Assembly (NCBI GenBank): GCA_963824555.1
Contig: CAWGPW010000007.1
Span: 26,186-90,185, forward strand
Reading direction: 5' to 3'
DNA from: an uncultured delta proteobacterium
GTDB lineage: Bacteria; Myxococcota_A; Polyangia; Fen-1088
DNA length: 64,000 bases
Below are positions 15,789 to 41,297 of this stretch, piece by piece; position 1 is the first letter of the stretch; each line of letters starts with the position of its first letter. The notes beneath the pieces are model-generated. The model did not search any database and had not been told where the DNA came from. It worked only from the letters and a program-made list of their open reading frames with translations. The translations under genes were made by a program, and so were the position numbers.

Positions 15789-17156
15789 ATGAAAGTCACG
15801 CCCGCCTATCACCGGCCTTGCCGCGTCTTCGCCTTTGCCGGCTTCGCCCTCCTGATCGCGCATTCCGCCGGCTGCTCCGACGGCAATCAGAAGGGTGGCA
15901 GCGGGGGAGGCTCGGGCAGCAACACCGGCGGTTCGACCGGGGCCGGCGGCTCATCTGGCAAGGGCGGCATGGGCGGGGGCTCGGGCGCCGGCGGTTCTGG
16001 CCTTTCGACTGACGGAGAGCATGGCGGCGGTGGAGGTGGGATATCCGGCGGTGCAGGCGGCGCGGACGCCGGGACTGGCCATGGTGGTTCGGGTGGCGCC
16101 GGAGGTTCGTCTGCCAAGACCGGCTCGGACATCGGCTCGGGCGGCAGCGGCACGGGTGGTGCGACCGGCGGTGCGACCGGCGGTGCGACCGGCGGAAGCA
16201 ACGGAGGTCTCGATGGCGGGACGCCTGACGTCGGGTCGGGCGGCACGGGCGGCGGGATCGGCGACGGCGGTCCACAAGGAACCGATAGCGCCTCGGGCCC
16301 CGCGGACGGCGACTCGAGCGGAAGCGTCGGCTGTGCAAGTTACCCGGTGTGGAACTCGAAGGTGACCTACGATACGGCCGGCCAACTCGTCGAGTACAAC
16401 TGCAAGCTCTACCAAAACCAGGGTTTCGCCTACGACGTGAACCCCGAAACCAACAACGGTCAGTACTACCAGTGGCTCTTGATGGGACCTTGCAGCGAAA
16501 ACAACTGCGCCATGGGCGAGGGTCCGTGGATCGCGTGCGGAAGCTATGACCACTGGACCAGCGGCGCCTACGAGGTCTTCAACGACGTCTGGGGCGGAGG
16601 CGCCGGGCCTCAATGCATCACCGCCTGGGACGGAAGCCACTTCGCCGTGCAAAGCACCCAGCCCGCCACCAGCGGCGTCAAGTCCTACCCCAACAGCGGC
16701 TTCCTCAACGTCGGCAAGACCATCAGCTCCCTGGCCACGTTCACCAGCAGCTTCGACATCACGGTCCCCAGCGATGGCGACTGGGAAGCGACCTACGACA
16801 TCTGGGTCCCGACCGAAATCATGATCTGGATGTACACGGTCGGGAACGTCGGTCCCATCGCGACCTCCTGGGATTCGACGGGCCAGCCAGTCCCGAGCGC
16901 CACCGACGTGACCGTGGGCGGGCACACCTGGAACGTGTATCACCAGAACGGCGGCAGCAACGTCATCTCGTTCGTGCGCACCACCAACACCACCTCGGCG
17001 ACGGTCGACATCCTGGCCCTGGTGAAGTGGGCGATAACCCAGAGCTGGATTCCCGACGGAACCATCGGGGCGGCTCAGTTCGGCTTCGAGATCAGCGGAA
17101 CGAACGGTGTGGCGACCGACTTCACCTGCAACAGCTTCTCGCTAACGGTCAACTGA
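15789..17156 (+). CDS. GH12 endo-beta-1,4-glucanase/xyloglucanase lipoprotein with a CBM5/12-like module
   Basis: Lipobox LIAHSAGC and a Gly-rich tether. The module CASYPVWNSKVTYDTAGQLVEYNCKLYQ…YQW is CBM5/12-like. The catalytic part carries PTEIMIWMY (the GH12 E-[IL]-M-I-W nucleophile motif) and QFGFEISG (acid/base). Confidence 0.9.
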   Translation: MKVTPAYHRPCRVFAFAGFALLIAHSAGCSDGNQKGGSGGGSGSNTGGSTGAGGSSGKGGMGGGSGAGGSGLSTDGEHGGGGGGISGGAGGADAGTGHGGSGGAGGSSAKTGSDIGSGGSGTGGATGGATGGATGGSNGGLDGGTPDVGSGGTGGGIGDGGPQGTDSASGPADGDSSGSVGCASYPVWNSKVTYDTAGQLVEYNCKLYQNQGFAYDVNPETNNGQYYQWLLMGPCSENNCAMGEGPWIACGSYDHWTSGAYEVFNDVWGGGAGPQCITAWDGSHFAVQSTQPATSGVKSYPNSGFLNVGKTISSLATFTSSFDITVPSDGDWEATYDIWVPTEIMIWMYTVGNVGPIATSWDSTGQPVPSATDVTVGGHTWNVYHQNGGSNVISFVRTTNTTSATVDILALVKWAITQSWIPDGTIGAAQFGFEISGTNGVATDFTCNSFSLTVN

Positions 17157-17197: not shown

Positions 17198-19597
17198 CTA
17201 CTTGACGACGATGGCATCCACCGCGACCGGTCCTGGTCCGCGATTGATGATGGCGATGGCGTGCTGTCCTGAAATCAGGCCACTCACCTCGGACACCATC
17301 TGCTGGGCCTGGCGCGCACCTGTTGAGGACAGATCCGCCGTCGCCTTGGATTGTCCATCGATCTGAATCTCAATGCTTCCATCCCCGGATTCTTTCGGAG
17401 CGTAGACCGACACGTCAGTCCCGGTGAATGTGGAAGTCCAGGTATCCCCAGTGTTGGTGCTGGTGGTGAGATCGTTGTTGTAGTCACCCGTGCCCAGGTT
17501 GGACTTGCGAAGCCATCCGGGAGCCGCCGCCCCCGGATCGTCGTCGTTGATCCAGCCCTTGTCGTGGGTGATGCGCAGAACGCGCATCTTCGACGCCACT
17601 TGCTGATCGGAGATCCCCGACAGCGCCGATACCGACCCGCTGGGCGTCACCGTTAGACCTTGACTGCCTTGAGTAAACGTCATCGCAACCGTGGAGCCGA
17701 GCAGCTCGACTTTGGACACCTTGCCCAAGGTTGCCCCCCCGGTCTTCAGCGCCGGGAGGGTGACCGCGCCTCCGTTCCAACCGAGGAGCGTGGCGTACAC
17801 ATTGCCGTTGTTGCGCGTATAGAGGACCGTACTGTCGCCGGAGACTTCAAAGGGACGGGATGCATACACGGCCTCGCCGTTGACCTTCAACCAAGCACCA
17901 ATGTCTTGGGCGATCTGGGTACACTGGGGGTCGAGATTCCCCCGGCCGTGCTGCGTGAGGTTGAGCAGCAAGCTGCCATTTCGGGAGACGTTCTGCATCA
18001 GCGTCGTGACCAGACTCCCGGCGCTTGTGTATCCCGCCCCGGTCATGTAGTGCCAGTTCCCGCCCTGAATGTCGAGCTCTGTCTGGAAGGGATAGGCATT
18101 GATGTCGGCGAGGGTAACCGCCTCCGTGCTCGCGACCAGGGCGCGCTGAACGTAGGGGATCAGGGCTTCATTGTCTTGGAAGCTATCGTATTGTCCGCCC
18201 ACACCCTTCATGTTCATCACCACGTCCATCTTCCCCTGATTCCAGGTCAAGGATTTGTTGTAGTAGTTTGCCAAGATCGTCGTTGCAATAGAACCCAGCC
18301 CCATATGGACGCCCAGATCCGTTTGGGAATCGCCGGCGTGGTCGTCGAAGTAGACGACGTCAGGATGATACTTGTTGATGGCGTCATCGACTCGATACAT
18401 GAACTGGGTGCCATAGGCCGAATTGTTGCACGAGTTGTTCGAACAGTCGGTGGTGTGCTTGGGCCCATAAAGATCAGCAGGATTCATGCCCTCCCACCAT
18501 TTGCCTTTGCCATCCGCTGTCGTTAGCAGCGCATCGTAGGGTCCCTTCGCGTCGCTGGTGTAACGAATCGGCATCCACTGACCCCAAGTTCGAGCTGGCG
18601 TGTTGTGGAAGCCGATGCCGAACCGCAGACCCTTTTGGCGCGCGATCGGCTCCCAGGTGCCCACCATGTCCTTCTGCACTCCGACCCGGACGGAGTTCCA
18701 GGGCTGGTAGGTCGAATCGAAGTTGTCGAAGTTGTCATGGTGCGCGCCCATAGCCATGAAGAACTTGGCGCCCATTTGCACGTACAGATCCATCAAGGCG
18801 CTGGGATCCCACAGGTCGACCACCCAGTTCTTGCAGATGTCCTTGTAACCGTAGACGGACGGATCACCGAAGTGGCTGACGTTATAGTTGAAGTCGGCCG
18901 AGCCCTCCTGATACATGTGATAGGCGTACCAGTCGCCTTGCTCGGGCATGGATTGAGGATCCCAGTGAGCCCACGCGCCGAATTTGGCGTCACGCCACCA
19001 CTCCGGCGTTGCGTAGGCCAGGCCGAGCGCCTTCCAGTCGGCGGTATACGGGCCCGTGGCCACGGGGAACTTCGGCAGGTTCCAAATGTCCGTGCCCGCG
19101 ACCGTTCCCCCCGTGCCCTGCTGGCCCCCGGTCCCAGGCGAGCCCCCAGCGCCGCCGGTCGCGCTTGTACTCGCACCGCCGGTGCCTCCGCCTGCTGCAC
19201 CACCGGTGGCGTTGCGGCCACCAGACGCAAACATGCCACCGCTTGCAACCCCGCCCCCTTGGCCACCGCCTTGTCCTTGGGGACCACCACCCGAACCGGA
19301 TAGCGTGCCACCGGACGACGAAGTCGTGGAACCGCCCGCATTGCTCGTGCCGCCACTCGCGGCCACACCCCCGCCTCCTTGGCTTCCGCCTTGGCCCGGG
19401 ATGCCTCCTCCCGAACTGGAACCACCCGCGCTGGTGGTATTGCCTCCTACCGCTAGGCCTCCGCTCCCGAGCCTTCCACCGCTGTTGACGCTACCTCCCG
19501 TGGCAGCGCCAGGAGAGGTATTCCCGCTGCAGGCGACCGAGAACCCCATGACGCTAAAAACAAGAACCATTGCCGTCTGCCTTGTCATCATCTTCAT
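17198..19597 (-). CDS. GH29 alpha-L-fucosidase lipoprotein with a C-terminal CBM-like domain
   Basis: MKMMTRQTAMVLVFSVMGFSVAC and a Gly-rich tether. Then …AKFGAWAHWDPQS…GDWYAYHMY…GAKFFMAMGAHHDNFDNFDS…, the GH29 pattern. The C-terminal ~140 aa form a beta-sandwich-like domain. Confidence 0.9.
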   Translation of the reverse strand: MKMMTRQTAMVLVFSVMGFSVACSGNTSPGAATGGSVNSGGRLGSGGLAVGGNTTSAGGSSSGGGIPGQGGSQGGGGVAASGGTSNAGGSTTSSSGGTLSGSGGGPQGQGGGQGGGVASGGMFASGGRNATGGAAGGGTGGASTSATGGAGGSPGTGGQQGTGGTVAGTDIWNLPKFPVATGPYTADWKALGLAYATPEWWRDAKFGAWAHWDPQSMPEQGDWYAYHMYQEGSADFNYNVSHFGDPSVYGYKDICKNWVVDLWDPSALMDLYVQMGAKFFMAMGAHHDNFDNFDSTYQPWNSVRVGVQKDMVGTWEPIARQKGLRFGIGFHNTPARTWGQWMPIRYTSDAKGPYDALLTTADGKGKWWEGMNPADLYGPKHTTDCSNNSCNNSAYGTQFMYRVDDAINKYHPDVVYFDDHAGDSQTDLGVHMGLGSIATTILANYYNKSLTWNQGKMDVVMNMKGVGGQYDSFQDNEALIPYVQRALVASTEAVTLADINAYPFQTELDIQGGNWHYMTGAGYTSAGSLVTTLMQNVSRNGSLLLNLTQHGRGNLDPQCTQIAQDIGAWLKVNGEAVYASRPFEVSGDSTVLYTRNNGNVYATLLGWNGGAVTLPALKTGGATLGKVSKVELLGSTVAMTFTQGSQGLTVTPSGSVSALSGISDQQVASKMRVLRITHDKGWINDDDPGAAAPGWLRKSNLGTGDYNNDLTTSTNTGDTWTSTFTGTDVSVYAPKESGDGSIEIQIDGQSKATADLSSTGARQAQQMVSEVSGLISGQHAIAIINRGPGPVAVDAIVVK

Positions 19598-19876
19598 AGA
19601 CCAGCCCCCCTGGCATTTCGGTTCAGCAATCGTGAGGGACTTGTGTCGTTTTCCTGGGCCAAGCGCGATGGCTCGTGCCGGCTCGGACTCAAGACGTGTC
19701 CATGAATGGACCCGTCTTGAACATTGTGCCCCCACCTGCGGCCGAGCCCTCGGCTCGGCAACTCAGCGCCCACAGACCTACACATTGTCCAACATCCAGT
19801 TTCCGCCAGAACCTGTCGATTTCTGACCCGGAATGCGCGGACACGCGGTCTATCATTGTGAAACTCGCCCTACGTC

Positions 19877-20500
19877 ATGCCAACGCTTCCTTCCCACGTG
19901 CCCCTGTCCTTGGTAGTCGGCCAAGACCGCCGTGCTGCCAGCGATGGTGATGTCGCGCGGGCGCTGAGCGTCGGGGAGGCGTGGGCCGCGGTGGAAACGT
20001 GGCGGCGGTTCGCGCCCATGGTGCTCACGCTCGCGAGGCGTACCTTGGGCTCTCATTCCGAAGCGGAAGACATTGGGCAAGACGTCTTCTGCCGGGTGTA
20101 CCGCAAGGTAAGAACCCTGCGCGAGCCCGATAGCTTCCGCAACTTCGTTTATACCTGCGCCCTGCGGGTGATTCAGACCGAGCTTCATCGCAAGAAGATG
20201 CGTTCCTGGCTATCCTTCGCGCAGCCTGGCTTGCTGGATTGCCAAAGCTCAGGAACGCTGGACGTGGAGTCGCGCGATCTGTTGCGTAGGTTTTATCGTC
20301 TACTAGAACGCCTGGCACCGCGCGACCGCATCGTGCTCGTCCTTCGGCGCGTGGAGTCGATGAGCGTGGAAGAGATTGCCGCCGCGACGAAGTCTTCGGA
20401 ATCCACGGTGAAGCGCTCGCTGGCACGCGCTTCAAGCCGCATGTCTCGCTGGATGAATGACGAGCCACGATCGGCTGACGGAAAAAGGTGGGGACGATGA
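19877..20500 (+). CDS. ECF (group 4) RNA polymerase sigma factor
   Basis: Region 2 reads EAEDIGQDVFCRVYRKV. Region 4 reads MSVEEIAAATKSSESTVKRSLARA. Confidence 0.9.
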   Translation: MPTLPSHVPLSLVVGQDRRAASDGDVARALSVGEAWAAVETWRRFAPMVLTLARRTLGSHSEAEDIGQDVFCRVYRKVRTLREPDSFRNFVYTCALRVIQTELHRKKMRSWLSFAQPGLLDCQSSGTLDVESRDLLRRFYRLLERLAPRDRIVLVLRRVESMSVEEIAAATKSSESTVKRSLARASSRMSRWMNDEPRSADGKRWGR

Positions 20501-21793
20501 GAAGTACGATTGGCGAACCCAAGGAATCTCCCGCCCTGACCAAGGCGACCGACCTTTGCCGCAACACCCTGGGGCCGCCGACCCCGGCGGAGCTTGAGCT
20601 GGGACTCGACAGTTTCCTTGCGCGCATTGCCCCGAACAAGGAGCGCCCTCGGCGATTTCGATTTGTTCGTTGGTCACTGGCGGGTGCTACGGTGGCACTG
20701 TGCACCTTGGTTGCCTTGCAGATTGCTTCAGTCTATCGAACGCGCTGGTCTACTGGTAGGGCGCCAACGCTTGCTTACCGGGTCGATGGAGGCAGTGTTC
20801 TCGAAGGGGGCTATCTGCGTGAATCCGGTCACGCGGGCATGAACGTGGTGTTCAACGAGGGAAGCCGATTGACGCTCGCGCCGGGAACACGCAGCCGGCT
20901 CCGGGTGGTCGACCGCGACAGTGCCCACGTGGCCATCGAACGTGGCCGAGGATCTTTCCAGGTCGTGCACAAAAGCAATCGGCGGTGGTTGGTCGATGTC
21001 GGCCCATTTTTGGTCACGGTCACGGGAACCGTCTTCACGGTCTCGTGGGATCCGGTGCGCGAGGAGCTCGAATCTCAGGCTGCGAGAAGGCAGCGTCTTG
21101 GTCAGTGGCCCCGTCTCGGCGGGAGAAATAGCGTTGCGGGCTGGCCAGCGGTTGGTCGCAAACCTGGCAAGAGTCGAGACCGTCATCACGGAAGAGACGC
21201 CGGAGCAAGCGAGCAGTGAGCCACCCAGTTCTCCCCCTGCACCAGCCGTGGCTCCACCCGGACTGCAGCCGTCGACCCCTGGTCCCTCCCCAGCACCCGC
21301 TGCATCCACGGTCGCCAAGCTCGCGGGTGACCATCAATGGGGCCTCAAGTTGGCGCGGGGCCAATGGGACCGCATTCTCCAGGACGCCAACCGTATCGGC
21401 GTTGAGGCGACCCTGAGCGAAGCGTCCAGCGAAGACCTTTTCGCTCTTGCCAACGCGGCTCGCTACCGACACCGTTCCGATCTGGCTCGGTCCGCCCTGC
21501 TTGCCGAGCGTCGGCGTTTTCCCGAGTCGCCGCGTGCGCTCGAAGCGCTCTACCTGCTTGGTCGCGTGGAGGAAGGCCGGGAAACCGGGACTGCTCAGGC
21601 CATCGCGTGGTACGATGACTATCTCACCCGCGCGCCGACCGGCCCGCTCGTGGGAGAAGCTTTGGGACGAAAGATGACTCTCACCGACAAGCTCGAAGGC
21701 CCGGCCCGGGCGCGCTCCCTCGCGGAAGAATATCTTCGTCGCTTCCCCAAGGGGAACTATGCTGGATCGGCGCGCGAGCTTCTCGTCCCGTGA
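20497..21793 (+). pseudogene. FecR-domain anti-sigma factor with a C-terminal TPR-like domain; apparent +1 frameshift near 21073
   Basis: The ATGA start overlaps the sigma stop. Sequence: MRSTIGEPK…, TM WSLAGATVALCTLVALQIA, FecR core …NEGSRLTLAPGTRSRL…VTVTGTVFTVSWDPVREELE. It continues only in the frame of ORF 20921..21793 (LRLREGSVLVSGP…RFPKGNYAGSARELLVP*). May be a sequencing indel. Confidence 0.8.
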
Positions 21794-22840
21794 CCCAGGC
21801 CCATTGAACCGCCTGCGCCTTGCCCTCTGTCTTGTGGCGTTCCTCGTAGGGACGGTGCCCGCCCATGCGGCCACCGTAGCCATCTTGTGGCCGCCGACAC
21901 CTTCCGCCGATGTGACCCAGGCGTTGACTCTTCTGCGTGGAGAGTTGTTGTCGGTGGGCCTGGAGGTCACGGTGGCCGACCGAGCGGGCGCCCGCAGCGT
22001 TGGGGGAACCGATTCGGTGGCTTGGCTCGAAGCCTTTGCAGCACGGGGTACCAGCGCTGTCATCGACGCTGTCGGGGGCGATGTGCTGGAGGCGGTCGAT
22101 GTATGGATTTAAAGACGCACCCACGACGATTCGAGGTTACTCGAGTTGCCATCGAGCCCAATGTTCCACGACAGCCGGAAATGCTCGCACTTCGTGCCGT
22201 TGAGGCCTTGCGCGCAGGCCTTCTTCAGATCGATTGGGCAGAACGAAGGCGACGCTACGGACCCATCGCAGAGCCAGCCATGGCCGTAGCGCCCGCGGGC
22301 GAGCTAGAGAGGCCCACGAGCCGTGGCGAACGCGTTGGCATCGAGGTTGGCGCGGTTGCAGTGATGAGCACGGACGGCCTTGGCCCTGCGGTGTTGCCGA
22401 CCGTGCGCGTGGGCTGGGCGGCTCGCCCCTGGCTCGTGATGCAGGCTTCGGCGGCAGGCTTCGGGAGCCGGTCCGCGGTTGCGACCGCGGCGGGCAACGC
22501 GCGGGTTGCCCAGCAATACGCCATCCTGGGCGGGTTCTATCGCCTTCGCTCGGCCAAGCGGCTGTGGCCCTTCTTCGGCCTCGCGGCCGGGGCGCTGCGC
22601 ACGTCGGTCGAAGGGCAGGACGGCTGGGGCACGGGGGGCCACACCGCGGAGCAATGGTCGGGTTTGATCGACGTGAGCTTGGGAGCGGGGTTTCGCCTTT
22701 ACGGCCGCTCCTACTTGACCTTGGCCGCACATGCGCAGGTGGCCGTGCCCTACGTGGTCATTCACATCGTCGATACGGTCGGCGCCACCTCTGGGCGTCC
22801 CAATCTCCTCCTGACCCTCACCGTCGGAGCCTGGCTATGA
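21759..22840 (+). CDS. Signal-peptide protein with a C-terminal OM beta-barrel-like domain; either one gene with a -1 frameshift at ~22104-22110 or two overlapping ORFs (21759..22112 and 22103..22840)
   Basis: The first ORF has the signal peptide LALCLVAFLVGTVPAHA and ends …LEAVDVWI*. The second frame continues DLKTHPRRFEVTRVAIEP… with no signal peptide of its own and ends in barrel-like strands …LLLTLTVGAWL*. Restoring one G (TGG GAT) fuses them. Confidence 0.7.
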
Positions 22841-23943
22841 AGGCGAGCAAGTCGGGATCGACGATCGGACTGCTCTGCGTGTTGGGCATGCTGACCAACA
22901 CCGCCGCTTGCTGGCATATCGACGTTTACGCGGTGACACCCAGTGGCGGCACGGATGCCGGTTCAGGCGAGACAGGGACTGGCGAGGCGACTGGCGCAGG
23001 GGGCAGCTCTGGCGCGGTGCCGAGTGCGGGGTGCGGAAAGACCTCGGCGCTCACCTTCGGGGCGATCCCGAATCAGGACCCGAACGCGGCTCCAGGCTCG
23101 GGGAACACGGTGGGCCACGGCGTCGGCGGCTACGTTACGATTCAGAGCAGTGGGAAGACCCGGACCTTCACCATGAGGCTTCCCGATAACTACGACCCAA
23201 ACCACCCCTACTGGTTGAGCTTCACTTTTCACCCTGCCGGCGGCAACACCTACGGAATCGACAACGGCGGAAACAATGGGTACACCATGGCCTATTACGG
23301 GCTCCAGAAACTATCGAACAACGGCGCGTTCTTCGTCGCGCCCGACGGGTTGAACAGCGGCTGGGCGAATTCCAACGGAGAAGACCTGCAACTCGTCGAC
23401 GACATGGTCAAGCTGATCGAGGACAATTACTGTGTCGACACGACGCACCTTTTCGCCCAGGGGTTCGCCTGGGGCGGTGGCATGACCTACGAAATCGCGT
23501 GCGCCCGGGCCAAAGTCTTTCGTGGGGTCGCAATCTACGAAGGAGCGGTGTTCAGCGGGTGCGACAATGGCAACGACCCTATCGCGTATTGGCAGATGGT
23601 CGGACTTACGGACACCACGTGTACCATCGACATGGCAAGACCGATGCGCGACCAGTTCGCTACCAACAACGGCTGCACCATCCCCCAGACCGAGCCGCCC
23701 GAGCCGCCTCAGCCACCCCCCTATTTGAACCCCGGAGGGCACGTCTGCACTGACTACACCGGATGCTCGAGCGGTCACCCCCTGCGTTGGTGCGTGCACC
23801 AGTCAGGTCTCGGCAACGCCATCGTGGATGGAACCTCGGACCTCTACAATTCGTGCGCGACGGCTCCCAAGACCTGCTCGACCACCTGCCCTTGTACCTG
23901 GGTTCCGGAGGACGTGTGGTCGTGGATGACAAGAAACTTCTAG
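22837..23943 (+). CDS. Lipoprotein esterase-fold paralog lacking the catalytic Ser and His (pseudo-esterase)
   Basis: MKASKSGSTIGLLCVLGMLTNTAAC, short tether, then SAGCGK…FTMRLPDNYD…FFVAPD…. The nucleophile elbow is GFAWG, where the paralogs have GFSYG / GFSFG. The ATGA start overlaps the upstream stop. Confidence 0.85.
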   Translation: MKASKSGSTIGLLCVLGMLTNTAACWHIDVYAVTPSGGTDAGSGETGTGEATGAGGSSGAVPSAGCGKTSALTFGAIPNQDPNAAPGSGNTVGHGVGGYVTIQSSGKTRTFTMRLPDNYDPNHPYWLSFTFHPAGGNTYGIDNGGNNGYTMAYYGLQKLSNNGAFFVAPDGLNSGWANSNGEDLQLVDDMVKLIEDNYCVDTTHLFAQGFAWGGGMTYEIACARAKVFRGVAIYEGAVFSGCDNGNDPIAYWQMVGLTDTTCTIDMARPMRDQFATNNGCTIPQTEPPEPPQPPPYLNPGGHVCTDYTGCSSGHPLRWCVHQSGLGNAIVDGTSDLYNSCATAPKTCSTTCPCTWVPEDVWSWMTRNF

Positions 23944-24045
23944 AACGTCGGCGGGTAGAAGCTCGACGAGGACCGGGCGAGGCGAGGGCTCCGCTCCCTG
24001 TCCCTCTCCCTCAGGAGCCTGCTTTGGCGAATCGCGAACGGTGAT

Positions 24046-25596
24046 TCAGTTCGTCGACACAACCCCTGTTGCAAGGTTGATGGACCACTGCGCGGAGTAG
24101 GTCAAGTGCCAGGTCGTGCCGTCAAAGGTGAACGGCAGCCACAGATATGTCGACAGGCTCAGGTTGCTGGAGTTCCAGATGTCGCCCGCGTAGATATAGG
24201 TCGTCGTCTGGCTGCCGACGATCGGAATAACATAGGTGGGCTGAGAGCTCCAGGTGGAGCCATTCGCACCGACGGCCACGAAGCTACTGCTCCACGGTCC
24301 GGTGATCGATCCGGTGGAGGTCAAGTACGCTGCCTGGTTCGGAGCCCAGCCGGTCTGGGCCGAGCTGATGCCGTAGTACTTGCCATTGTCCTTCCAGAAA
24401 GCATAGGCTTCACGGGTCGTCGAAGCCCAAATCTTGGTGGTGTTCTGGACATTGAGATAGTCGCTCGAGAGCTGGTAGACCTCTGTGTCGCGAAAATCCC
24501 CGCCCGCGTTTCCGCCCGGTCCCCCCGTGGATACAAAGTAGGCGGTTCCATCCGGCTCCTGCCAAAGCGTGCAGTCGCGCGAGCTATTGCCGCCCCCAGG
24601 CTGGAAGTGTTTCACGTACGTGTAGTTGCCGTCCACCGTGGGACTGGTGAAGACGACCGCCTCCGAGTCACAATAGCCACCGCTCGCCCCAGTGCAGGCC
24701 TCCATATCCCAGTGGGCCCACATCACGTACAGCTTTGTGGAAGCGTTGTAGATAACTTTGGGCCGTTCAATGATCAGATTGACGTTGCTGAGCACCGGAT
24801 CCGTACTGGTCGTGACGACCGAGTTGCGATGCTCCCAGTTGGCAAGATCCTTGGAGGCGTAGCAGCTGATAGCGTGGAAGTTGCCCGTCCCATTCGTGTT
24901 CAGGGTCTTGTCTTCGCCGAACCAGTACCACGTATCGCAGACCTTGATCAAGCCACCCCCATGGGCCTGAATGTGCTTGCCCGTAGTGTCGTTCCAGGGG
25001 CCGCTGTTGCTGATGCTGCCTGTGATAACCCCGGCATCCACGGGTGGACAAAGGTCGTCTACCGTTCCGCCGGCTCCCGTGGTACCGCCAGCCCCGGCCG
25101 CGCCGCCGCTCCCATTCACGCCACCCGAGCCGTTCGCCGCGCCACTATCCGTCGCGGCGTCCGGGTGGGGCGTTCCCCCCGAGCCGCTTGCACCGCCGTT
25201 GCCGGTTGCCCCGCCCGAGCCCCGGCCACCAGTGCCCGTCACGCCGCCGTTGCCGGCTACGCCGCCACGGCCACTCACGCCCCCCGGGCTGGTCGCACCT
25301 CCGGAGCCAGCCATGGAGGTTGCCCCGCCCGAGCCGGTCACGCCGCCCGAGCCGATTGTTCCGCTCGATCCCGTAGCCCCGCCCGAGCCACGACCACCAC
25401 TACCGGCCACGCCGCCATAGCCGGTTGTGCCACCATTCCCACTCACGCCACCGCTGCTGGTCACGCCGCCGCTGCCCGCGGTACCGCCACTGCTTGCTCC
25501 CCCTCGGCCGGCAGCTCCTCCCGTTCCTGATGCCCCACAGCCTAACGGGCCAAGAAAAAGGGAGAGAGCGACACAATGGAATCTTCTTACGCGCAT
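24046..25596 (-). CDS. GH43-family (five-bladed propeller) glycoside hydrolase lipoprotein
   Basis: GGAGG RBS, MRVRRFHCVALSLFLGPLGC and a ~170-aa Gly-rich tether. Then …GPWNDTTGKHIQAHGGGLIKVCDTWYWFGEDK…KLYVMWAHWD…, as in GH43 exo-galactanase-type enzymes. Confidence 0.85.
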   Translation of the reverse strand: MRVRRFHCVALSLFLGPLGCGASGTGGAAGRGGASSGGTAGSGGVTSSGGVSGNGGTTGYGGVAGSGGRGSGGATGSSGTIGSGGVTGSGGATSMAGSGGATSPGGVSGRGGVAGNGGVTGTGGRGSGGATGNGGASGSGGTPHPDAATDSGAANGSGGVNGSGGAAGAGGTTGAGGTVDDLCPPVDAGVITGSISNSGPWNDTTGKHIQAHGGGLIKVCDTWYWFGEDKTLNTNGTGNFHAISCYASKDLANWEHRNSVVTTSTDPVLSNVNLIIERPKVIYNASTKLYVMWAHWDMEACTGASGGYCDSEAVVFTSPTVDGNYTYVKHFQPGGGNSSRDCTLWQEPDGTAYFVSTGGPGGNAGGDFRDTEVYQLSSDYLNVQNTTKIWASTTREAYAFWKDNGKYYGISSAQTGWAPNQAAYLTSTGSITGPWSSSFVAVGANGSTWSSQPTYVIPIVGSQTTTYIYAGDIWNSSNLSLSTYLWLPFTFDGTTWHLTYSAQWSINLATGVVSTN

Positions 25597-26068: not shown

Positions 26069-26680
26069 ATGATTGAAAGCAATGCAAATGCCATTGTTCC
26101 CATCGCCCTGTCTCGTGCAACGGTTGGCTCGTGGCTCTCGACGTCGCCTCTGCCTCGCTTCGAGAACATCTACAAACAATTCTTCGACTTCGTGTGGTCC
26201 TCGGTCAGACACTTTGGCGTCGAAAGAGATGCCGTCGACGATGTGGTTCAAGATGTCTTCGTCGTGATCCATGCCAAGCTTGCCACGCTGCAACGGCCGG
26301 AGTCTCTACGGAGCTGGATCTACGGCATCGTACGCCGCACCGCGAGCGACCACCGGCGGTCAAGGCGGACGAGAGATGCCGCGCATGCGAGGCTCGGCAC
26401 CGAGCTCAAGTGGAGTCAGCCGGCCCGACCATCGCCTTTCGAGCTGGCCGAGAGGAATGCCGAGCTGGACCTGCTCGAGAGCATCCTGGCGGACATCGAT
26501 GAACCTAAACGGGAGATCTTCGTAATGGTGGAGGTTCTAGGCATGACAGTCCCGGAAGCGGTTCAAGCACTCGTGATACCCCTGAACACCGCCTATTCCA
26601 GGCTTCGGTTGGCGAGGCTGTCCTTCGAGAAAGCACTCGCCGAGCGTGAAGCGCTCGCCGATGCGAAGCAGCCTTCGTGA
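26069..26680 (+). CDS. ECF RNA polymerase sigma factor (no adjacent anti-sigma gene)
   Basis: …ERDAVDDVVQDVFVVIHAKL… is region 2. …MTVPEAVQALVIPLNTAYSRLRLAR… is region 4. Confidence 0.85.
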   Translation: MIESNANAIVPIALSRATVGSWLSTSPLPRFENIYKQFFDFVWSSVRHFGVERDAVDDVVQDVFVVIHAKLATLQRPESLRSWIYGIVRRTASDHRRSRRTRDAAHARLGTELKWSQPARPSPFELAERNAELDLLESILADIDEPKREIFVMVEVLGMTVPEAVQALVIPLNTAYSRLRLARLSFEKALAEREALADAKQPS

Positions 26681-26688
26681 GCACGAGG

Positions 26689-28308
26689 CTAGAACGCGAC
26701 GTACGGCCCTTGGCCGCCGGGGGTGTCTTGCTGCTCGATGGCCGTGTAGACCGTGCGACCGTAGAAAAAGGGGAGTCCCCAAAGGAAATCAGGCACGCTC
26801 GATGTCCCCGACGAGGGGAACCCCGGCATTTCTGCTCCGAGAGTGCCCAAAGCGGAAATGGTCGCGCTGATCCTGCTGGCGCTGGCGATGGTGAAGGTCG
26901 CGAGCGCGCTCGCGTTGTTCCCGCCGAAAATGGTGGCGCTGAGGTTCGTCGAAGTCGCGGGACAGTAGAACGATGACATCGCGGCCGAGGTGCACAACGC
27001 CAGACCCGACGTGGCCGAGTTGAGGAAGGTGTAGGTGTTGGTGCCGCTGTCCATGAACCCGGTGTATTTCGTGCCGCCGACCGGATAGGTGGTTCCCACA
27101 TTGCCGTAGTCATCGACCGGCGTAATCACCGTCGCGCTCCCCAGGCCGTTGTTCGCCTGCGTGCCGATGCCGAATATCAACTTACCCGTCGTTGAAGCCA
27201 GTCCGCCTGCGGGCACGCTGGGCAATTGAATGACAACGCCATTGTTGTCGACCGGGAAACTCACGATGGGGTTTCTTACCTGGGACTCGATGGAAACCGC
27301 TGTCGTCTTGCAGCCGCCGGCTTGGTTTGATGTGCAGGCAAAATACATTCCCGGGTTGTTGCGGCCCGTCTGCGCACATGCTGTGCCGCAATCCTGCTGG
27401 CCGATACCCACGCCGATGATTCCATTCGCCATCAAGGATTGCAGGTCGGTGATGGCCGGGCCACTCGAACAAAGGCCGGAGGTGGGCATGGGATAGGTCT
27501 TCTCGCCAATGGCTTGGATCGGGAGCGCGGCTGCTGTCTCGCCACTGATCTTGACGTCGGCGCTTAGAATCGGCCCCCAGGCCGTGCCATCCACGAATTG
27601 CGTGCAGGAACCCAGCGGGTTTCCAGAGGCGTCCTTGACGGCCGGCAAAACCGGCGTGATTGCACTCTCTAGCACCCGCAAACCATACGACCCGGTATCG
27701 ACGAGAACGTGATCAATCGATTGGCAGGTGCTCGTACCCGGTTGGCACAAAGTCACCGTGACGAACAAGCCGTTGATGTAGCCGATGTTCTGTGGCCCCC
27801 GATCGACGACCGCCTGGATGGTATTATTTTCGCTCCCGGACGAACCGCCGGAAACAGTGACACCGCCGCTTCCACCCGATGCCCCGCCCGCAGCAGTCGT
27901 GCCGCCCCCGCCCGCAGCGCCGCCAGCGCTCGTCGTGCCGCCTTGGCCGATGGCGCCGCCCGTGCGCGACGAGCCTGCGGCGCCACCCGCGCCCCCGGAA
28001 TCTGTTGCGCCCCCTAGGTGAGACGCCCCCCCGGAACCGGTCACGCCGCCGACTCCCGATCCCCCTCCGGAACCGCCAGCAAGCCCCGAGCCTCCCGAGG
28101 AGCCCCCGGAACTGTCGGCACCGCCCGCACCCGACGAACCGCCCGAACCGCGCGCGCCGCCTGTATTGCTGGCTCCTCCCGTGGCTGCACCTCCGCTAGC
28201 CGCACCCCCAGTCGATCCATTCCCACCGGCGGCGCCTTGGGTGCGTCCGCTGCCGGTGCAGTTGAGGAACAAGATGGAAGCCATTGCAATGGGAAGTAGT
28301 CTGCGCAT
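26689..28308 (-). CDS. DUF3443-family lipoprotein with a bilobal pepsin-like aspartic-protease signature
   Basis: MRRLLPIAMASILFLNC (lipobox) and a Gly-rich tether. Then …HVLVDTGSYGLRVL… and …TGFMDSGTNTYTF…, which are DTG and DSG motifs about 190 aa apart. Confidence 0.85.
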   Translation of the reverse strand: MRRLLPIAMASILFLNCTGSGRTQGAAGGNGSTGGAASGGAATGGASNTGGARGSGGSSGAGGADSSGGSSGGSGLAGGSGGGSGVGGVTGSGGASHLGGATDSGGAGGAAGSSRTGGAIGQGGTTSAGGAAGGGGTTAAGGASGGSGGVTVSGGSSGSENNTIQAVVDRGPQNIGYINGLFVTVTLCQPGTSTCQSIDHVLVDTGSYGLRVLESAITPVLPAVKDASGNPLGSCTQFVDGTAWGPILSADVKISGETAAALPIQAIGEKTYPMPTSGLCSSGPAITDLQSLMANGIIGVGIGQQDCGTACAQTGRNNPGMYFACTSNQAGGCKTTAVSIESQVRNPIVSFPVDNNGVVIQLPSVPAGGLASTTGKLIFGIGTQANNGLGSATVITPVDDYGNVGTTYPVGGTKYTGFMDSGTNTYTFLNSATSGLALCTSAAMSSFYCPATSTNLSATIFGGNNASALATFTIASASRISATISALGTLGAEMPGFPSSGTSSVPDFLWGLPFFYGRTVYTAIEQQDTPGGQGPYVAF

Positions 28309-28958: not shown

Positions 28959-30299
28959 TTAGAACTGTGTGATGAACTTCCAGGCTTCCGGTGGATTCCA
29001 GCTCGTTGTCTGGCCGGGATCGATTGGATCCCACCCGTGCGGACCGTTGAAAACGCAGTATTCGGTCGGGTGCCCCGCCGAGCAGCCCTTGTAGTTCGTG
29101 CAAGTGTGCGGCTGGCCGCTGGCTGGGAACGTTGTGGACGCAGGCTCTGGCGTGCATCCATTGACAGCGGCGAACTGGGCTTGCTTCACTTCTCCGAGCA
29201 TGGGCGAAGTGGTCATCCCCGCGCTGTCCTGGCTGGCCTGCGACGCATAGTACGCAATCGGCTTGGTTAGCGTCGTGGGGCAGGAATTGGTGAGATCCGC
29301 CCCCGAGAAAAACGCGACGGCGCGGAACACGTCAGCCCGCGTGCACGCGAGGGCCATGGCCATGGCCGCTCCAAAGCTGAATCCGGTCGCGAAGACTCGA
29401 GTGGTGTCGATGCAGAGGTCGCCTTCGACTTGGGCGAGGATTGCATCGGTAAACGCCACGTCTGTGTTGCTCCAGGACCCGGCCCCGTTGGCAGCGTCGG
29501 GCGCGACGAAGATGGTGTTCTTGCTGTCCAAAGTCGCCATCGTGAAGTAATTCCGGTCCGCAACGGACTGGGCCGATGACCCGGACTCGGCGAAGGCGAG
29601 GACCAGCCGATAGGCGTGGCTGCTATCGTAGCCGCCGGGCACGTCCAGAATGTATTTTCGCGAGCCGTTGCTCTGAATGGTGAGGGTCCCGTTCTGGAGT
29701 GTCCGTGATTTTCCGCAGCCTGCGCTTTGCGCCACGCTGGCGTCTGCTCCCGAGACGCCCGAGCTGCCGCCCGAACCTGGCCCGGTCGCGCCGCCGGATC
29801 CTGGTCCGATCGCACCACCCGATTGAGAGCCGCTCGTGCCGCCCGAACCGGAAATCGCCGAGCCGCCCGACCCAAGGCCACCGGCACCGCCCGATGCTAC
29901 GGTACCGCCCGAAGCGCCAGGTACCGTGCCTCCGGTGGCGGTCGATCCGCCATCGACGGCACCTCCCGATCCCAAGCGACCTCCCGTGCCCGTTCCGCCG
30001 CTTCCCGGGCCGATGCGCCCACCACTGCCACTCGCTCCACCTGTTCCGGGCTGTGCGGTACCACCGCTTCCCATCGTTCCCCCCGGGCTAAACGCGCCCC
30101 CGGTGCCATCCGCTCCACCCGTTCCCGATTTTCCACCGCTTGCCGTCGTTCCCCCTTGGCTGGGCAATCCGCCGGTGCCATTCGTGCCACCGCTTCCCGC
30201 CGAAGAAGGCGAGCTGCGCGATGAACAAGCAGCTGCTAGAACTGCGAGCACCGCCGCCATCGAATGGACACGCAACCCTCCGAATGCAGAAGACATCAT
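28959..30299 (-). CDS. Lipoprotein esterase, PHB-depolymerase / CE1-like family (third paralog)
   Basis: MMSSAFGGLRVHSMAAVLAVLAAAC and a Gly-rich tether. Then SAGCGKSRTL…YILDVPGGYD…IFVAPD…RVFATGFSFGAAM (GxSxG)…CVFNGPHGW…. Confidence 0.9.
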   Translation of the reverse strand: MMSSAFGGLRVHSMAAVLAVLAAACSSRSSPSSAGSGGTNGTGGLPSQGGTTASGGKSGTGGADGTGGAFSPGGTMGSGGTAQPGTGGASGSGGRIGPGSGGTGTGGRLGSGGAVDGGSTATGGTVPGASGGTVASGGAGGLGSGGSAISGSGGTSGSQSGGAIGPGSGGATGPGSGGSSGVSGADASVAQSAGCGKSRTLQNGTLTIQSNGSRKYILDVPGGYDSSHAYRLVLAFAESGSSAQSVADRNYFTMATLDSKNTIFVAPDAANGAGSWSNTDVAFTDAILAQVEGDLCIDTTRVFATGFSFGAAMAMALACTRADVFRAVAFFSGADLTNSCPTTLTKPIAYYASQASQDSAGMTTSPMLGEVKQAQFAAVNGCTPEPASTTFPASGQPHTCTNYKGCSAGHPTEYCVFNGPHGWDPIDPGQTTSWNPPEAWKFITQF

Positions 30300-30584: not shown

Positions 30585-31448
30585 GTGAGCGGAGACACGG
30601 CGTCGTCATCTTGGAAGGCGTCGCTGGCGCTGACCTTCGCCGCCAGGCAGGGGGCGACCCGGTTGCTTCGTCGCGGCCACTTTGGTCCCCTGGTGGTACA
30701 GCGACCGTTCTTTCCCGAGGGCCCCAAGGCATGCCACGCGTACATTCTGCATCCGCCCGGCGGCATCGTGCCCGGGGACACCCTCGGGCTGGACATCGCC
30801 GTCGAGGACGGAGCGCACGCGCTCATCACGGCCCCCGCGGCGACCAAGATCTATCGCAGCGACGGTCGCATTTCTCGCCAAGTGCAAACCGTTCGAGCAG
30901 CGGCGGGCTCGATCGTCGAGTGGCTGCCCCAAGAAACCATCCTCTTCGAAGGCGCCCGCGCACACCTCGCAACCCGAATCGACTTGTCCGGCTCCGCCGC
31001 GTTCATCGGCTGGGACATCCTGTGCCTTGGCCGGGCCGCGTGCGGCGAGCGTTTCGGCGCCGATTCCCTTTGCCGACAGCATTTCGAGCTGTGGCGCGAT
31101 GGCCGGCCCCTGGTCTTGGAACGGACGCGCTACGAAGGCGACGTTCAAGATGCGACCTGGGGTCTGCGGGGCGCAACCGTCACCGGGACGCTGCTTGCCG
31201 CTTTGCCGGGATTGACCGACGAAGGCCCGGCTCACGAAACCAAACAAGCCCTGCTGCACGCCTTGCGCGGGCTCGGCGAACGCGAAGGCGAGCGCATCTC
31301 CGCCAGCGAGGTCGGTGGCGCCTTGGTTCTTCGCTACCTTGGAAACGGCGCCGAGAGTGCCCGCATCCTATTCGAGAAGGCTTGGCGCATCTTGCGACCG
31401 ACGCTTCTCGGTCGTCCGGTTTGCCTTCCTCGCATCTGGTCAACCTGA
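30585..31448 (+). CDS. ureD: Urease accessory protein UreD
   Basis: GTG start. …[43 protein letters not shown]… is the typical UreD/UreH pattern. Confidence 0.9.
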
Positions 31449-31462
31449 TTCGTCGGAGATCC

Positions 31463-32092
31463 ATGGACCTACTTCCTCGTGAACAAGAAAAGCTTCTCCT
31501 CTTCGCGGCCGGCCTTCTCGCCGAGCGCAGAAAGGCCCGCGGGCTGAAGCTGAACTATCCCGAAGCCGTGGCGTACATCTCCGCCGCCATTCTCGAGGGC
31601 GCGCGCGACGGTCGAAGCGTGGCCGACCTGATGACCTACGGAACCCAGCTCCTCGGCGCCGACGACGTGATGGAAGGCGTGGCCGAGCTGATCCCCGAGG
31701 TGCAGGTCGAAGCGACGTTTCCCGACGGCACCAAGCTGGTGACGGTTCACCAGCCCATTCCTCTTTCCCATTCCGTTCCCGGCGAAGTGACGACCGCGCC
31801 GGGCGAGATCGTCCTCAACGAGGGTCGGACCACCCTCACCCTAGAGGTGGCCAACACCGGAGACCGACCCATCCAAGTGGGATCGCACTATCACTTCTTC
31901 GAGACCAATCCCGCCCTGCGTTTCGATCGCCCGAAGACGCGAGGCTTTCGTTTGAACATTCCCGCCGGCACTGCCGTGCGCTTCGAACCCGGGCAGACCC
32001 GCACCGTCGAGCTGTGCGCCTTCGCCGGCGACCGCGTGGTGCAGGGGTTCCGCGGCGAGGTGATGGGCCCACTCGACAAAGGTGCGTCATGA
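31463..32092 (+). CDS. ureAB: Urease gamma-beta fused subunit (UreA-UreB fusion)
   Basis: [39 protein letters not shown]… (gamma) continues without a stop into …[44 protein letters not shown]… (beta). 209 aa in total. Confidence 0.9.
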
Positions 32093-33801
32093 GACGCATC
32101 GATCGGCGCGCCTACGCCGACATGTACGGCCCCACCGTTGGGGATCGCGTGCGCCTCGGCGACACCGACTTGGTCGTCGAGGTCGAGCACGACCACGCCA
32201 TCTATGGGGAAGAGGTGAAGTTCGGCGGCGGCAAGGTCATCCGCGACGGCATGGGACAAAGCCAGCGCTTCGGCGCAGGTGTCGCCGATACCGTCATCAC
32301 CAACGCCGTGATCGTCGACCACTGGGGCATCGTCAAGGCCGACATCGGCATCAAAGACGGCCGCATTTCCGGCATCGGCAAGGCCGGCAATCCCGACGTG
32401 CAACCGGGCGTGACCATCGTCATCGGCCCCGGTACGGAAGTCATCGCGGGGGAAGGGTGCATCGCCACGGCCGGCGGCATCGATTCGCACATCCATTTCA
32501 TTTGTCCGCAGCAGGTTGACGAGGCGCTCATGTCCGGCATCACGACCATGATCGGCGGCGGCACCGGTCCCGCTGCAGGCACCAACGCGACCACCTGCAC
32601 GCCGGGGCCCTGGAACACGGCGCGCATGCTCGAGGCGGCCGACGCGCTGCCGGTGAATCTGGGCTTCCTCGCCAAGGGGAATGCCAGCCTGCCAGGTGGG
32701 CTGGTCGAGCAGATCGAGGCCGGGTGCATGGGTCTCAAACTGCACGAGGACTGGGGGACCACGCCGGCCGCCATCGACAATTGCCTGTCCGTGGCCGAGG
32801 CGCACGACGTGCAGGTGGCCATCCACACCGACACCTTGAACGAATCGGGCTTCGTCGAAGACACCATCGCCGCCTTTCGCGGCCGCGCCATCCACACCTA
32901 CCACACCGAAGGTGCCGGCGGCGGGCACGCGCCGGACATCATCAAGGTGTGCGGCGCCGCCAACGTGTTGCCGTCCTCCACCAACCCGACCCGGCCTTAC
33001 ACGATCAACACCGTCGACGAACACCTCGACATGTTGATGGTCTGCCACCATCTGGATCCGAGTATTGCCGAGGACGTGGCCTTTGCCGAGTCGCGCATTC
33101 GCCGCGAGACCATCGCCGCCGAGGACATCTTGCACGACCTGGGCGCCTTCAGCATGATGTCCAGCGATTCGCAGGCCATGGGCCGCGTGGGGGAGACCAT
33201 CACGCGCACCTGGCAGACCGCGCACAAGATGAAAGAGCAGCGTGGCCCCTTGCCAGCCGACGCCGCCGCTGGGGGCAAGAACGACAACTTCCGCGTGAAG
33301 CGCTTCATCGCGAAGTACACCATCAATCCCGCCATCACCCACGGTATTGCGCACGAAGTGGGTTCGCTCGAAGTGGGCAAGCTGGCCGACATCGTGCTGT
33401 GGAAGCCTGCCTTCTTCGGCGCCAAGCCTGCCCTGATCGTCAAAGGCGGATTCATCGCAGCCGCGCCCATGGGCGATGCCAACGCCTCCATTCCCACGCC
33501 TCAGCCGGTGCGCTTTCGCCCCATGTTCGGCGCCTTGGACGGCCCGCGCCAGAAGACCAGCGTGACCTTCGTCTCGGCGGCGGCGCTTGCGGCCGGCGTA
33601 GGCGAGCGACTGGGGCTACGCAAGCGCGTGGTCGCAGTCAAGGGAACCCGAACCATCCGCAAACGGGATCTTGTTCACAACGACTATCAACCGGTCATCG
33701 AAGTGGATGCACAAACCTATGCCGTGCGCGCCGATGGCCAGCCGCTCGTTTGCTCGCCCGCGCACAAGTTGCCGCTCGCGCAACGTTACTTTTTGTTCTG
33801 A
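32089..33801 (+). CDS. ureC: Urease alpha subunit
   Basis: [28 protein letters not shown]…[14 protein letters not shown]…[10 protein letters not shown]…. The ATGA start overlaps the ureAB stop. Confidence 0.95.
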
Positions 33802-33813
33802 AGGACGGGCTTC

Positions 33814-34290
33814 GTGTTGAACCTGCGCAGAAGGATCGGTGCAAGACCCGCCATCGAAGGTGGAGAGAGGATGGCGTCGCTGACGCTTTCGTTCGAGGCT
33901 CGGCGAAAAAGTCGCCTGCGCGCCAGTCTCGACGACGGTCGCGAAGTGGCGGTGTTTCTTGCCCGGGGAACGGTCCTGCGCGAAGGGGATTGTCTTTGCG
34001 ACGATGACGAGAAGGTGCCGGTCGTGGTCAGGGCCATTGCGGAGACCTTGTCCGTGGCGCGCACCGCGGATCGCCACCTCTTGGCTCGCGCCGCCTACCA
34101 CCTTGGCAACCGGCACGTCCCCTTGCAGATCGGTCCGGACTGGCTGGCCTACGGACACGACCACGTGCTCGACGACATGGTCCGCGCGCTCGGCCTGGCT
34201 GTGGCCGTCGAGCAGCGGCCCTTCGAACCGGAGGCCGGCGGATACAGCCATGGGCACGGGCATGGGCATGAGGAACAACATGGGCACTAG
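33814..34290 (+). CDS. ureE: Urease accessory protein UreE (His-rich tail)
   Basis: GTG start. …[19 protein letters not shown]… followed by the C-terminal tail [14 protein letters not shown]. Confidence 0.9.
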
Positions 34291-35012
34291 TTCTGCAGCG
34301 CAAGCGGAGCCTGTGCCGGCGTCGGCCTTCTCACCGGGTGTCGCGGGCGTGCCGCTTCTGCATCTCATGCACCTCGCAAGCTCCGCTCTCCCCATCGGGG
34401 CCTTCGCCTACTCGCAAGGGCTCGAACAAGCCATTGCACTTTCTTGGGTGAACGATGAGGCGTCCGCGGCCACCTGGATTCTCGGTCTGCTGTCGAATGC
34501 CGTGGGAAGATTGGATCTTCCAATCCTGGTTCGCTTGCATGAGGCGTTCGCGCGCGAGGACGATGGCGCCGCCCAGCGCTGGAGCGATTTCCTCTTCGCC
34601 TCGCGGGGAAGCTTCCGAGCTGCAGGCGGAAGAGCGGCACCTGGGCGGGGCGCTGGCCAAGGTTCTCGACGGTCTGGGCGTGGACGGCGCCCGCGCCTGG
34701 CTGGCGGAGCCGCACGTCACCCACGCCACCATGTTCGCCCTGGCCGCGGTCCGCTGGGAGATCCCCGTGACCTCGGCCGCGGCGGGATATGCCTTCGCGT
34801 GGACCGAAGCCCAGGTGGGCGCGGCCACGCGACTTTGTCCCCTCGGCCAAGGGACCGCGCAGCGGATCCTGTCTCGATCCCTGCCGGTCATCGACCGCGC
34901 GGTGACGAACGCTCACGCTTTCCCCGACGACGACCTTGGCACATCCGCGCCCGCCCAGGCCATCGCCAGCGCCTTGCACGAAACCCTCTACTCGCGGCTT
35001 TGCCGATCCTAA
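34280..35012 (+). pseudogene. ureF: Urease accessory protein UreF, disrupted by a 1-nt insertion in the G4 run 34605-34608
   Basis: Frame A reads …[24 protein letters not shown]…[10 protein letters not shown]. Frame B (ORF 34455..35012) reads [20 protein letters not shown]…[11 protein letters not shown]. Removing one G gives [16 protein letters not shown], the UreF consensus. May be a sequencing indel. Confidence 0.85.
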
Positions 35013-35023
35013 GGAGATCCATC

Positions 35024-39054: not shown

Positions 39055-39064
39055 GGTCGACGTC

Positions 39065-41233: not shown

Positions 41234-41297
41234 CGCTTCAGCGACCGTTCCTTCTCGCGACGTGAATCCCCACGGCTTTCGTGTCAGAAGCAGGAGC

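Follow-up and report, generated by a model that had tools for sequence, protein, structure and literature searches.

The 64,000-nucleotide stretch of DNA analysed here (hereafter, the window; G+C content of about 64%) comes from an uncultured delta proteobacterium of the Polyangia lineage Fen-1088 (contig CAWGPW010000007.1 of assembly GCA_963824555.1, forward strand, positions 26,186 to 90,185). Its closest relatives are uncultured Polyangia/Myxococcales metagenome-assembled genomes (MAGs), the best of them 85-88% identical. Between positions 19877 and 23943, the window carries on its + strand a module of four chained genes, which encode an extracytoplasmic function (ECF) sigma factor (19877..20500, an intact open reading frame (ORF) of 207 aa), its putative anti-sigma factor (20497..21793, 1297 nt, with a +1 nt insertion at 21071/72), a predicted outer-membrane barrel protein (21759..22840, 1082 nt, lacking 1 nt within the T run 22108-22110), and a lipoprotein derived from an esterase (22837..23943, an intact ORF of 368 aa). 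The four identities assigned in a preliminary description made from the sequence alone, namely an ECF sigma factor, an anti-sigma factor with FecR and tetratricopeptide repeat (TPR) parts, a small barrel not of the TonB-dependent type, and an esterase-fold lipoprotein deprived of its Ser and His, were all confirmed, as were the two ATGA overlaps noted in it: at 20497-20500, where the sigma stop codon TGA (20498-20500) overlaps the anti-sigma ATG at 20497, and at 22837-22840, between the barrel and the lipoprotein genes. The 35-nt overlap reported between the second and third genes was only partly substantiated. An ATG does lie at 21759, 35 nt before the end of the TGA at 21791-21793, and it has a good ribosome-binding site (AAGGGGA) just 5', but the overlap is uncertain because the barrel gene may instead start with TTG at 21806, the position at which, in the alignment, the initial Met of several distant homologues is found. 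Contrary to the description of the second and third genes as continuous ORFs, each of them is split over two frames in the window sequence.

The sigma factor matched the Pfam domains Sigma70_r2 (4.5e-13) and r4_2 (2.5e-13), as well as the NCBIfam model TIGR02937 (76.8 bits, cutoff 42.9). Apart from the latter, its best NCBIfam matches were generic ECF models below their family cutoffs, and no FecI model appeared among the top 25 of 92. The dN/dS of the sigma gene ranged from 0.13 to 0.28. The product of the anti-sigma gene is organized, in this order, as a short cytoplasmic N-terminus, one transmembrane helix (around residues 57-80), a FecR domain (PF04773, 26.9 bits, cutoff 24) that carries on across the frameshift, a linker rich in Pro, and, at the C-terminus, a TPR-like domain of the TPR_16/YbgF type, whose Pfam TPR_16 score (32.3 bits) lies just below the cutoff of 32.7.

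The barrel protein is predicted to consist of a signal peptide, a periplasmic alpha/beta N-domain with a long helix behind it, then a disordered linker, and finally a small C-terminal beta-barrel of about 170 residues. Its structure was modelled with AlphaFold2 on the intact orthologue P0121 instead of the frameshifted window product (predicted local distance difference test score, pLDDT, of 80.5). Foldseek matched this model to OmpA-TM, OmpW, NspA, OprF-N, Ail, and OmpX with E values of 1e-7 to 1e-4, the folds of OmpA, OmpX, and NspA having 8 strands; an OmpA model was matched at E=1.3e-7, and the target TM-scores for the NspA, OmpA, and OprF barrels were 0.6-0.74. No Pfam or NCBIfam match was found for the protein at E<=0.1, and the precomputed Pfam annotation was empty for 120 of 120 homologues. 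The family has more than 500 homologues, with about 695 clusters at 50% identity (E<=1e-10), and the module offers a testable function for these roughly 700 clusters, a barrel family without described relatives. An STN signalling domain in the N-terminal part was ruled out by a Pfam scan and by a fold search with the isolated N-domain (model pLDDT of 87.5), and Pfam detected no Plug, TonB_dep_Rec, or STN domain in any of the four module products. Export of the barrel protein through the Tat pathway, suggested by its N-terminus (MLDRRAS...), was also discarded, as the Arg pair is too distant from the h-region and the spacing is off consensus.

The product of the fourth gene is a lipoprotein according to its predicted lipobox: the signal peptide ends in ...GMLTNTAAC, with an atypical Thr at position -3, and Cys25 is invariant in the alignment of the lipoproteins. 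In the window, this Cys opens the sequence CWHIDVYAVT. Profile positions 94-325 matched the feruloyl esterase of PDB entry 8jh8 (E=4e-59), and the matches to NCBIfam esterase_phb were weak and below cutoff. The nucleophile Ser is replaced by Ala (GFAWGGG(M), versus GFSYGGG or GFSFGGG(M) in active paralogues and in 8jh8), and the catalytic His, whose position was assigned by family alignment, is replaced by Leu (SGLGNA, versus SGHGNA or SGGHDP); the catalytic Asp is kept. The protein shares with 8jh8 and other PHB-depolymerase-family (CE1-like) esterases the alpha/beta-hydrolase core, the Cys-rich C-terminal part, and the Asp of the triad, and differs from them in the Ser to Ala and His to Leu changes, which run throughout the module-linked clade, as well as in the lipobox and the conserved post-Cys motif. 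Of the best 120 homologues, 86 paralogues retain Ser as well as His, and the motif is absent from each of them; in the motif-bearing ones with a readable His position, the His is lost in all and the Ser in nearly all. This dead clade is still 65-70% identical to its active paralogues. Since its dN/dS is only 0.15-0.27, as low as that of the sigma gene, the fourth gene is, by this measure, one encoding a maintained pseudoenzyme and not a decaying gene. The window also contains, at 28959-30251 on the - strand, a paralogous lipoprotein gene that keeps GFSFG and the His (PHGWDP), presumably encoding an active esterase; it has neither the post-Cys motif nor an upstream ECF-type promoter motif.

The module was searched for in related genomes, which are GTDB genomes counted here as loci when flanking sequence was available. 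In line with the synteny that the preliminary description had singled out as a key check, the sigma, anti-sigma, and barrel genes were found together in 34 of 34 genome loci and in 7 of 7 metagenome loci. All genome loci except one (L041, binned as Gemmatimonadaceae) come from Polyangia/Myxococcales MAGs, with up to three module copies per MAG. The fourth position is occupied by a translationally coupled, motif-bearing lipoprotein gene in 31 of the 34 distinct loci with a readable downstream ORF, and no lipoprotein-like ORF was found downstream of the barrel gene in the other three (L036, L037, and L041). The N-termini of the mature lipoproteins follow the consensus C-x-R-[AT]-[DN]-[VL]-[YFH]-[AP]-[IVL]-T. 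When 490 kb were translated in six frames, the strict form of this module-specific motif, C-x-R-x-D-V-Y-A-V-T, was met at 20 places, each of them the N-terminus of a module lipoprotein.

Behind this common N-terminus, the C-terminal domain of the lipoprotein varies among three carbohydrate-active enzyme (CAZyme) families, nearly always without a catalytic residue. Class A, to which the window belongs, has the 8jh8-like esterase with Ser changed to Ala and His to Leu. Class B has an Esterase_PHB-like domain (GV[L/G/A]TGGGM) with no His, in which the Ser is kept only in L033. Class C has a GH141-like domain, in which D523, the nucleophile of the GH141 enzyme BT1002 (PMC10154630), is changed to Gly or Ser in 7 of 7 proteins and D564 is kept; GH141 paralogues that keep the Asp are encoded directly upstream of the sigma gene in L020. 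On the strength of these comparisons, the module is a widespread and conserved, putatively signalling unit of uncultured soil myxobacteria.

A common promoter motif was detected in the module and its surroundings. Upstream of the sigma gene, eight class A loci share the pattern GTCGATTT(T)C-TGACC-N18-GGTCTA. In the window, this putative autoregulated ECF-type promoter lies at 19815..19852 on the + strand (GTCGATTTC-TGACCC-N17-GGTCTA) and is separated by 24 nt from the sigma ATG. Another copy, TGAACCGAAATG...GGTCTA, is located at 19625-19597 on the - strand, directly abutting the likely start of a divergent gene (17198..19597, -) for a lipoprotein of the GH29 alpha-L-fucosidase family (Pfam Alpha_L_fucos, E=1.2e-66, plus Fucosidase_C). 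The likely start of this gene is the ATG at 19597 (MKMMTRQ...FSVAC), with the longest ORF extending to 19735, and its putative promoter (19597..19625, -; TGAACCGAAATGCCAGGGGGGCTGGTCTA) scores 37 bits with a position weight matrix (PWM) built from these sites. The pattern occurs twice in the window versus 0.36 occurrences expected, and only the sigma and GH29 sites exceed 12 bits in the PWM scan. The same scan gave no site upstream of the GH12, GH43, or active esterase genes, which are therefore not predicted targets. The link to neighbouring hydrolase genes put forward in the preliminary description is supported by the motif that the sigma and GH29 genes share, a support that does not extend to GH12, GH43, and the active esterase. 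A scan of 19500-24200 for sigma-70 promoters and terminators gave nothing above chance. The module itself is flanked by the GH12 (15789-17156, +) and GH43 (24046-25596, -) genes, both with long Gly/Ser-rich linkers.

The association with regulated genes recurs in other loci. GH29 orthologues adjoin class A modules in L001, L004, L006, L012, and L014, downstream in some and divergent in others, and the motif precedes the GH29 gene in all five (as TGTCTA in L004). It also precedes the gene of a GH78 rhamnosidase lipoprotein in L009. In classes B and C, a variant, TGAACC-N17-CGACTGC, lies upstream of the sigma gene and of adjoining lipoprotein esterase genes with an intact G-x-S-x-G; in class B, the motif precedes intact esterase lipoprotein genes in 10 loci. 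Regular-expression matches were above those in shuffled sequences (18 versus 3.6 expected, and 31 versus 13.7 expected). The probable output of the module is the induction of an adjacent gene for a plant-glycan enzyme, which in the window would be that of GH29. The lipoproteins predicted as class B targets (L017, 8607-11898; L018, L023, L037, L038, and L041) measure about 450 aa, show the motifs GFSCGG and GHGGD, have no Pfam match, and may represent an undescribed esterase family under the control of these sigma factors.

The frameshifts in the second and third genes were mapped by aligning the window DNA to that of the six most closely related orthologues with intact genes. In the anti-sigma gene, frame 1, with the FecR part, ends at the stop codon 21217-21219, and the TPR part is in frame 2; the alignment revealed an extra A at 21071/72 (CTCGAATCTC versus CTCG-ATCTC in the orthologues). 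In the barrel gene, frame 0, with the signal peptide and the N-domain, ends at the stop codon 22110-22112, and the barrel part is in frame 2; here one base is missing in the T run 22108-22110, and ATTTTA would give VWILKT, compared with VWVLKT in the orthologue. With the intact forms restored at both sites (CTCGATCTC at 21071 and ATTTTA at 22108), one-base repairs yielded stop-free products of 431 aa (anti-sigma) and 360 aa (barrel) with no other lesions, which fit the lengths found in relatives (421-433 and 341-360 aa, respectively). All orthologues examined are intact at both sites. A window-specific 40-mer spanning the first frameshift had no match in the metagenome contigs, and no second copy of the strain turned up in the collections searched; the exact sequence of the window lipoprotein had no database record either.

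Further frame breaks of the same kind were found elsewhere in the window. A one-base insertion in a GGGG run near 34604 breaks ureF, whose Pfam UreF positions 1-53 are read in one frame and 54-149 in the next; the gene belongs to a urease cluster (30585-35671) that contains ureD, a ureA-ureB fusion, ureC, ureE, ureF, and ureG. A gene for a secreted protein with a weak PG_binding_1 match (54848-57009) seems to change frame at GGGGAAAAA (55254-55262), probably by another homopolymer indel. All four lesions in the window are changes of one base, plus or minus, within a mononucleotide run. A screen of adjacent same-strand ORFs had suggested a clean assembly, as every pair inspected turned out to be separate genes (CMAS/FAD oxidoreductase, LolA-like/FtsX, the LigD parts, and ArsR/AHSA1), and this was overturned by a codon-bias frame scan, which brought out ureF and the break at 55254-62. 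In loci from nanopore-derived MFD MAGs (L012, L019, L028, and L041), the module genes gave split tblastn matches, and the lipoprotein gene of L012 has two extra bases with respect to all other orthologues; these indels are likely errors of the same kind as those in the window. On the window branch, the dN/dS of the anti-sigma and barrel genes is 0.34-0.35, compared with 0.19-0.29 in relatives. Because of the one-base run lesions, the low dN/dS, the breaks in ureF and at 55254-62, and the split matches in the MFD MAGs, both module frameshifts are rather likely indel errors of the assembly, as far as sequence can tell, a very recent inactivation being the less likely cause. Frameshifts of this type in long-read MAGs can conceal such operons from gene callers.

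The interpretation that we favour, with a probability of about 55%, is that the module is a Polyangia-restricted trans-envelope signalling unit, expressed as one operon under an ECF-type promoter, in which the dead-enzyme lipoprotein would be the sensor. According to this model, the single-pass anti-sigma factor, with its periplasmic FecR domain followed by the TPR domain, would hold the ECF sigma factor, and the OmpA/OmpX-like small barrel, with its periplasmic alpha/beta N-domain, would be the partner of the lipoprotein encoded downstream. The latter would dock onto the barrel or the TPR domain through the C-x-R-x-D-V-Y-A-V-T peptide that follows the lipidated Cys, and its CAZyme domain would bind a cognate cell-wall fragment without cleaving it. 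Binding would be relayed by the N-domain of the barrel and the anti-sigma factor, leading to release of the sigma factor, which would then activate its own operon and the adjacent GH29 gene through TGA(A)CC-N18-GGTCTA promoters. The physical contacts of this model, its topology (at the cell surface or on the periplasmic face), the ligand, the direction of signalling, and the proteolytic steps are those that we infer, and the receptor role of the dead enzyme, its tethering at the surface, and the feruloylated or acetylated hemicellulose ligand proposed in the preliminary description would likewise be suggestions. A broader version of the model can be put forward tentatively, at somewhat less than even odds: a fixed core, made up of the sigma factor, the FecR-TPR anti-sigma factor, and the small barrel, would accept swappable lipoprotein receptors through one N-terminal docking peptide. 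These receptors would have arisen on at least three occasions through inactivation of a CAZyme of the regulated kind (feruloyl-esterase-like, PHB-depolymerase-like, and GH141), so that each module would detect the compound on which its active paralogues or partners act and would induce these enzymes.

Several observations weigh against this signalling model. A classical anti-sigma domain would be longer than the roughly 55 aa that the anti-sigma factor has on the cytoplasmic side. The N-domain of the barrel protein has no significant structural match, the folds retrieved being like those of anticodon-binding domains, PelC, and TolB-N at E>=1e-3, and the barrel itself, predicted with 8 to 10 strands and low confidence at residues 337-344, may be too narrow in the model to thread the lipoprotein to the surface. 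The -10 element of the GH29 promoter abuts the ATG, which requires an mRNA without a leader or with a very short one. In addition, the promoter motif was derived from the regions upstream of the sigma genes and matches these by construction, so that only the sites at target genes are independent, and all carriers of the module are uncultured MAGs. Finally, the first frameshift changes A1 to A2 and does not lie in a long homopolymer, which makes a real inactivation possible. The module would then be a decaying pseudogene cluster in the window genome, where genuine frameshifts would leave the sigma factor constitutively free or the whole unit inert. Neighbouring genes carry the two frameshifts within a span of 1.04 kb, only the window has them among the seven loci aligned base-by-base, substitutions cluster around the second site, and the dN/dS on the window branch is slightly above that of relatives, all of which would agree with decay. 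That dN/dS is, however, far below 1, no further lesion was found, single-base repairs restore full-length products, and the sigma and lipoprotein genes are intact and constrained. Moreover, the homopolymer frameshifts in ureF and at 55254-62 affect unrelated conserved genes within the same 64 kb, a pattern typical of long-read assembly error. We thus regard decay as unlikely.

Two other explanations concern the role of the lipoprotein. It could be an output or accessory of the system, that is, a non-catalytic glycan-capture protein co-expressed with the barrel, with sensing left to the FecR/TPR parts of the anti-sigma factor or to another protein. The barrel and lipoprotein genes belong to the putatively sigma-controlled operon and would also be induction products, TPR and FecR domains are themselves capable of binding ligands or peptides, and outer-membrane components are regulon targets both in FecIRA and in the polysaccharide utilization loci (PULs) of Bacteroides. 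Nevertheless, the barrel and the lipoprotein accompany the sigma and anti-sigma factors in nearly every locus, with start/stop overlaps, and the variable domain tracks the regulated enzyme, as would a specificity determinant (a dead esterase with an active esterase, a dead GH141 with GH141 paralogues). Furthermore, the post-Cys motif is conserved whatever the domain behind it, which points to an obligatory complex with the core rather than to a free binding protein, and a role as output or accessory therefore appears improbable. The other possibility is an envelope-stress sensor like RcsF-OmpA or sigmaE-RseA-RseB, in which the dead enzyme domain would be a mere scaffold. Many ECF systems respond to envelope stress, the pairing of a lipoprotein with a small OmpA-like barrel recalls the RcsF-OMP complexes, and the N-domain weakly resembles TolB-N and PelC. 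This possibility is very hard to reconcile with up to three paralogous modules per genome bearing different CAZyme-derived domains, always inside CAZyme gene clusters, and with predicted targets that encode a fucosidase, a rhamnosidase, and esterase lipoproteins instead of envelope-repair functions; the 65-70% identity of the dead enzyme to active paralogues also argues for a preserved binding pocket.

Other features of the window and of related loci were recorded. A second, unrelated ECF sigma gene (26069-26680, +) is convergent with a DUF3443 lipoprotein gene (26689-28308, -; E=2e-112). A two-gene LigD arrangement (38020-41329, -) encodes a phosphoesterase and a primase-polymerase, followed by a separate ligase. 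A protein of about 1050 aa with a lipoprotein-like N-terminus (3592-6924, -) is made up of some 20 tandem Cys-rich units (C-x-PG-x-TQCS-x-NGVQTC-x-GTWG...); in L006, a DUF4215-annotated gene adjoins the module. A secreted Trp/Tyr-rich protein (49643-50635, -) has a long C-terminal run of EHRE(M/A)EHRE repeats.

The layout resembles that of FecI-FecR-FecA, with the three differences that had been pointed out in the preliminary description and that hold here: a small non-TonB barrel, an anti-sigma factor that ends in TPRs, and a dead-esterase lipoprotein. Common to both systems are an ECF sigma factor, a single-pass FecR anti-sigma factor, a co-encoded outer-membrane partner, and an output, predicted in the case of the module, consisting of the transcription of genes for the uptake or degradation of the sensed compound. 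In contrast to FecIRA, the module has no TonB-dependent barrel, plug, or STN domain and contains instead a small barrel with an unrelated alpha/beta N-domain; its anti-sigma factor terminates in a TPR domain, the lipoprotein is an obligatory fourth component, and the sigma factor has no specific FecI-family match among its best NCBIfam matches. With the ECF/anti-sigma and SusC/SusD systems of Bacteroidota PULs, the module would share the logic by which an outer-membrane barrel and a glycan-binding lipoprotein signal the presence of a glycan to an anti-sigma factor and its ECF sigma factor, so that adjacent CAZyme genes are induced. SusC, however, is a TonB-dependent transporter of 22 strands that bears an STN domain, and SusD is an all-helical TPR-like binder. 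The module, which is found in Myxococcota, has a small barrel instead and, as the predicted binder, a dead enzyme. Because it contains neither a TonB-dependent transducer nor an STN domain, the module falls outside both the FecIRA and the SusC/D types. Like RcsF with OmpA, OmpC, or OmpF, the module would use an outer-membrane lipoprotein and a barrel to relay an outside signal to an inner-membrane regulator; RcsF, on the other hand, consists of a dedicated small domain and acts on IgaA and the Rcs phosphorelay, and the RcsF systems have no dedicated barrel gene, enzyme-derived domain, or ECF sigma factor.

The only possible trace of the module found in the literature is ECF267, a small group of unknown function located beside FecR-like anti-sigma factors with TPRs (Casas-Pastor et al., 2021, PMC7826278); the pairing of barrel and lipoprotein was not found described anywhere in the literature searched. 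Going by its published description, ECF267 has a conserved Ser/Thr kinase in its neighbourhood, without mention of a barrel or a lipoprotein. No kinase was seen in the immediate flanks of the module. The module is accordingly rated as a so far undescribed, putative variant of cell-surface signalling. It would represent a natural case of enzymes turned into receptors by mutations of the substrate-trapping type (Ser to Ala, His to Leu), and its docking peptide and compact promoter are possible parts for engineered glycan biosensors. If the model is true, TonB-independent cell-surface signalling for plant polysaccharides would exist outside Bacteroidota, which hints at how abundant uncultured myxobacteria of soil and peat choose the plant cell-wall enzymes to deploy. 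To our knowledge, what is understood of cell-surface signalling to ECF sigma factors comes almost entirely from TonB-dependent transducers, and the module suggests a second route to these sigma factors, based on a small barrel and a lipoprotein receptor.

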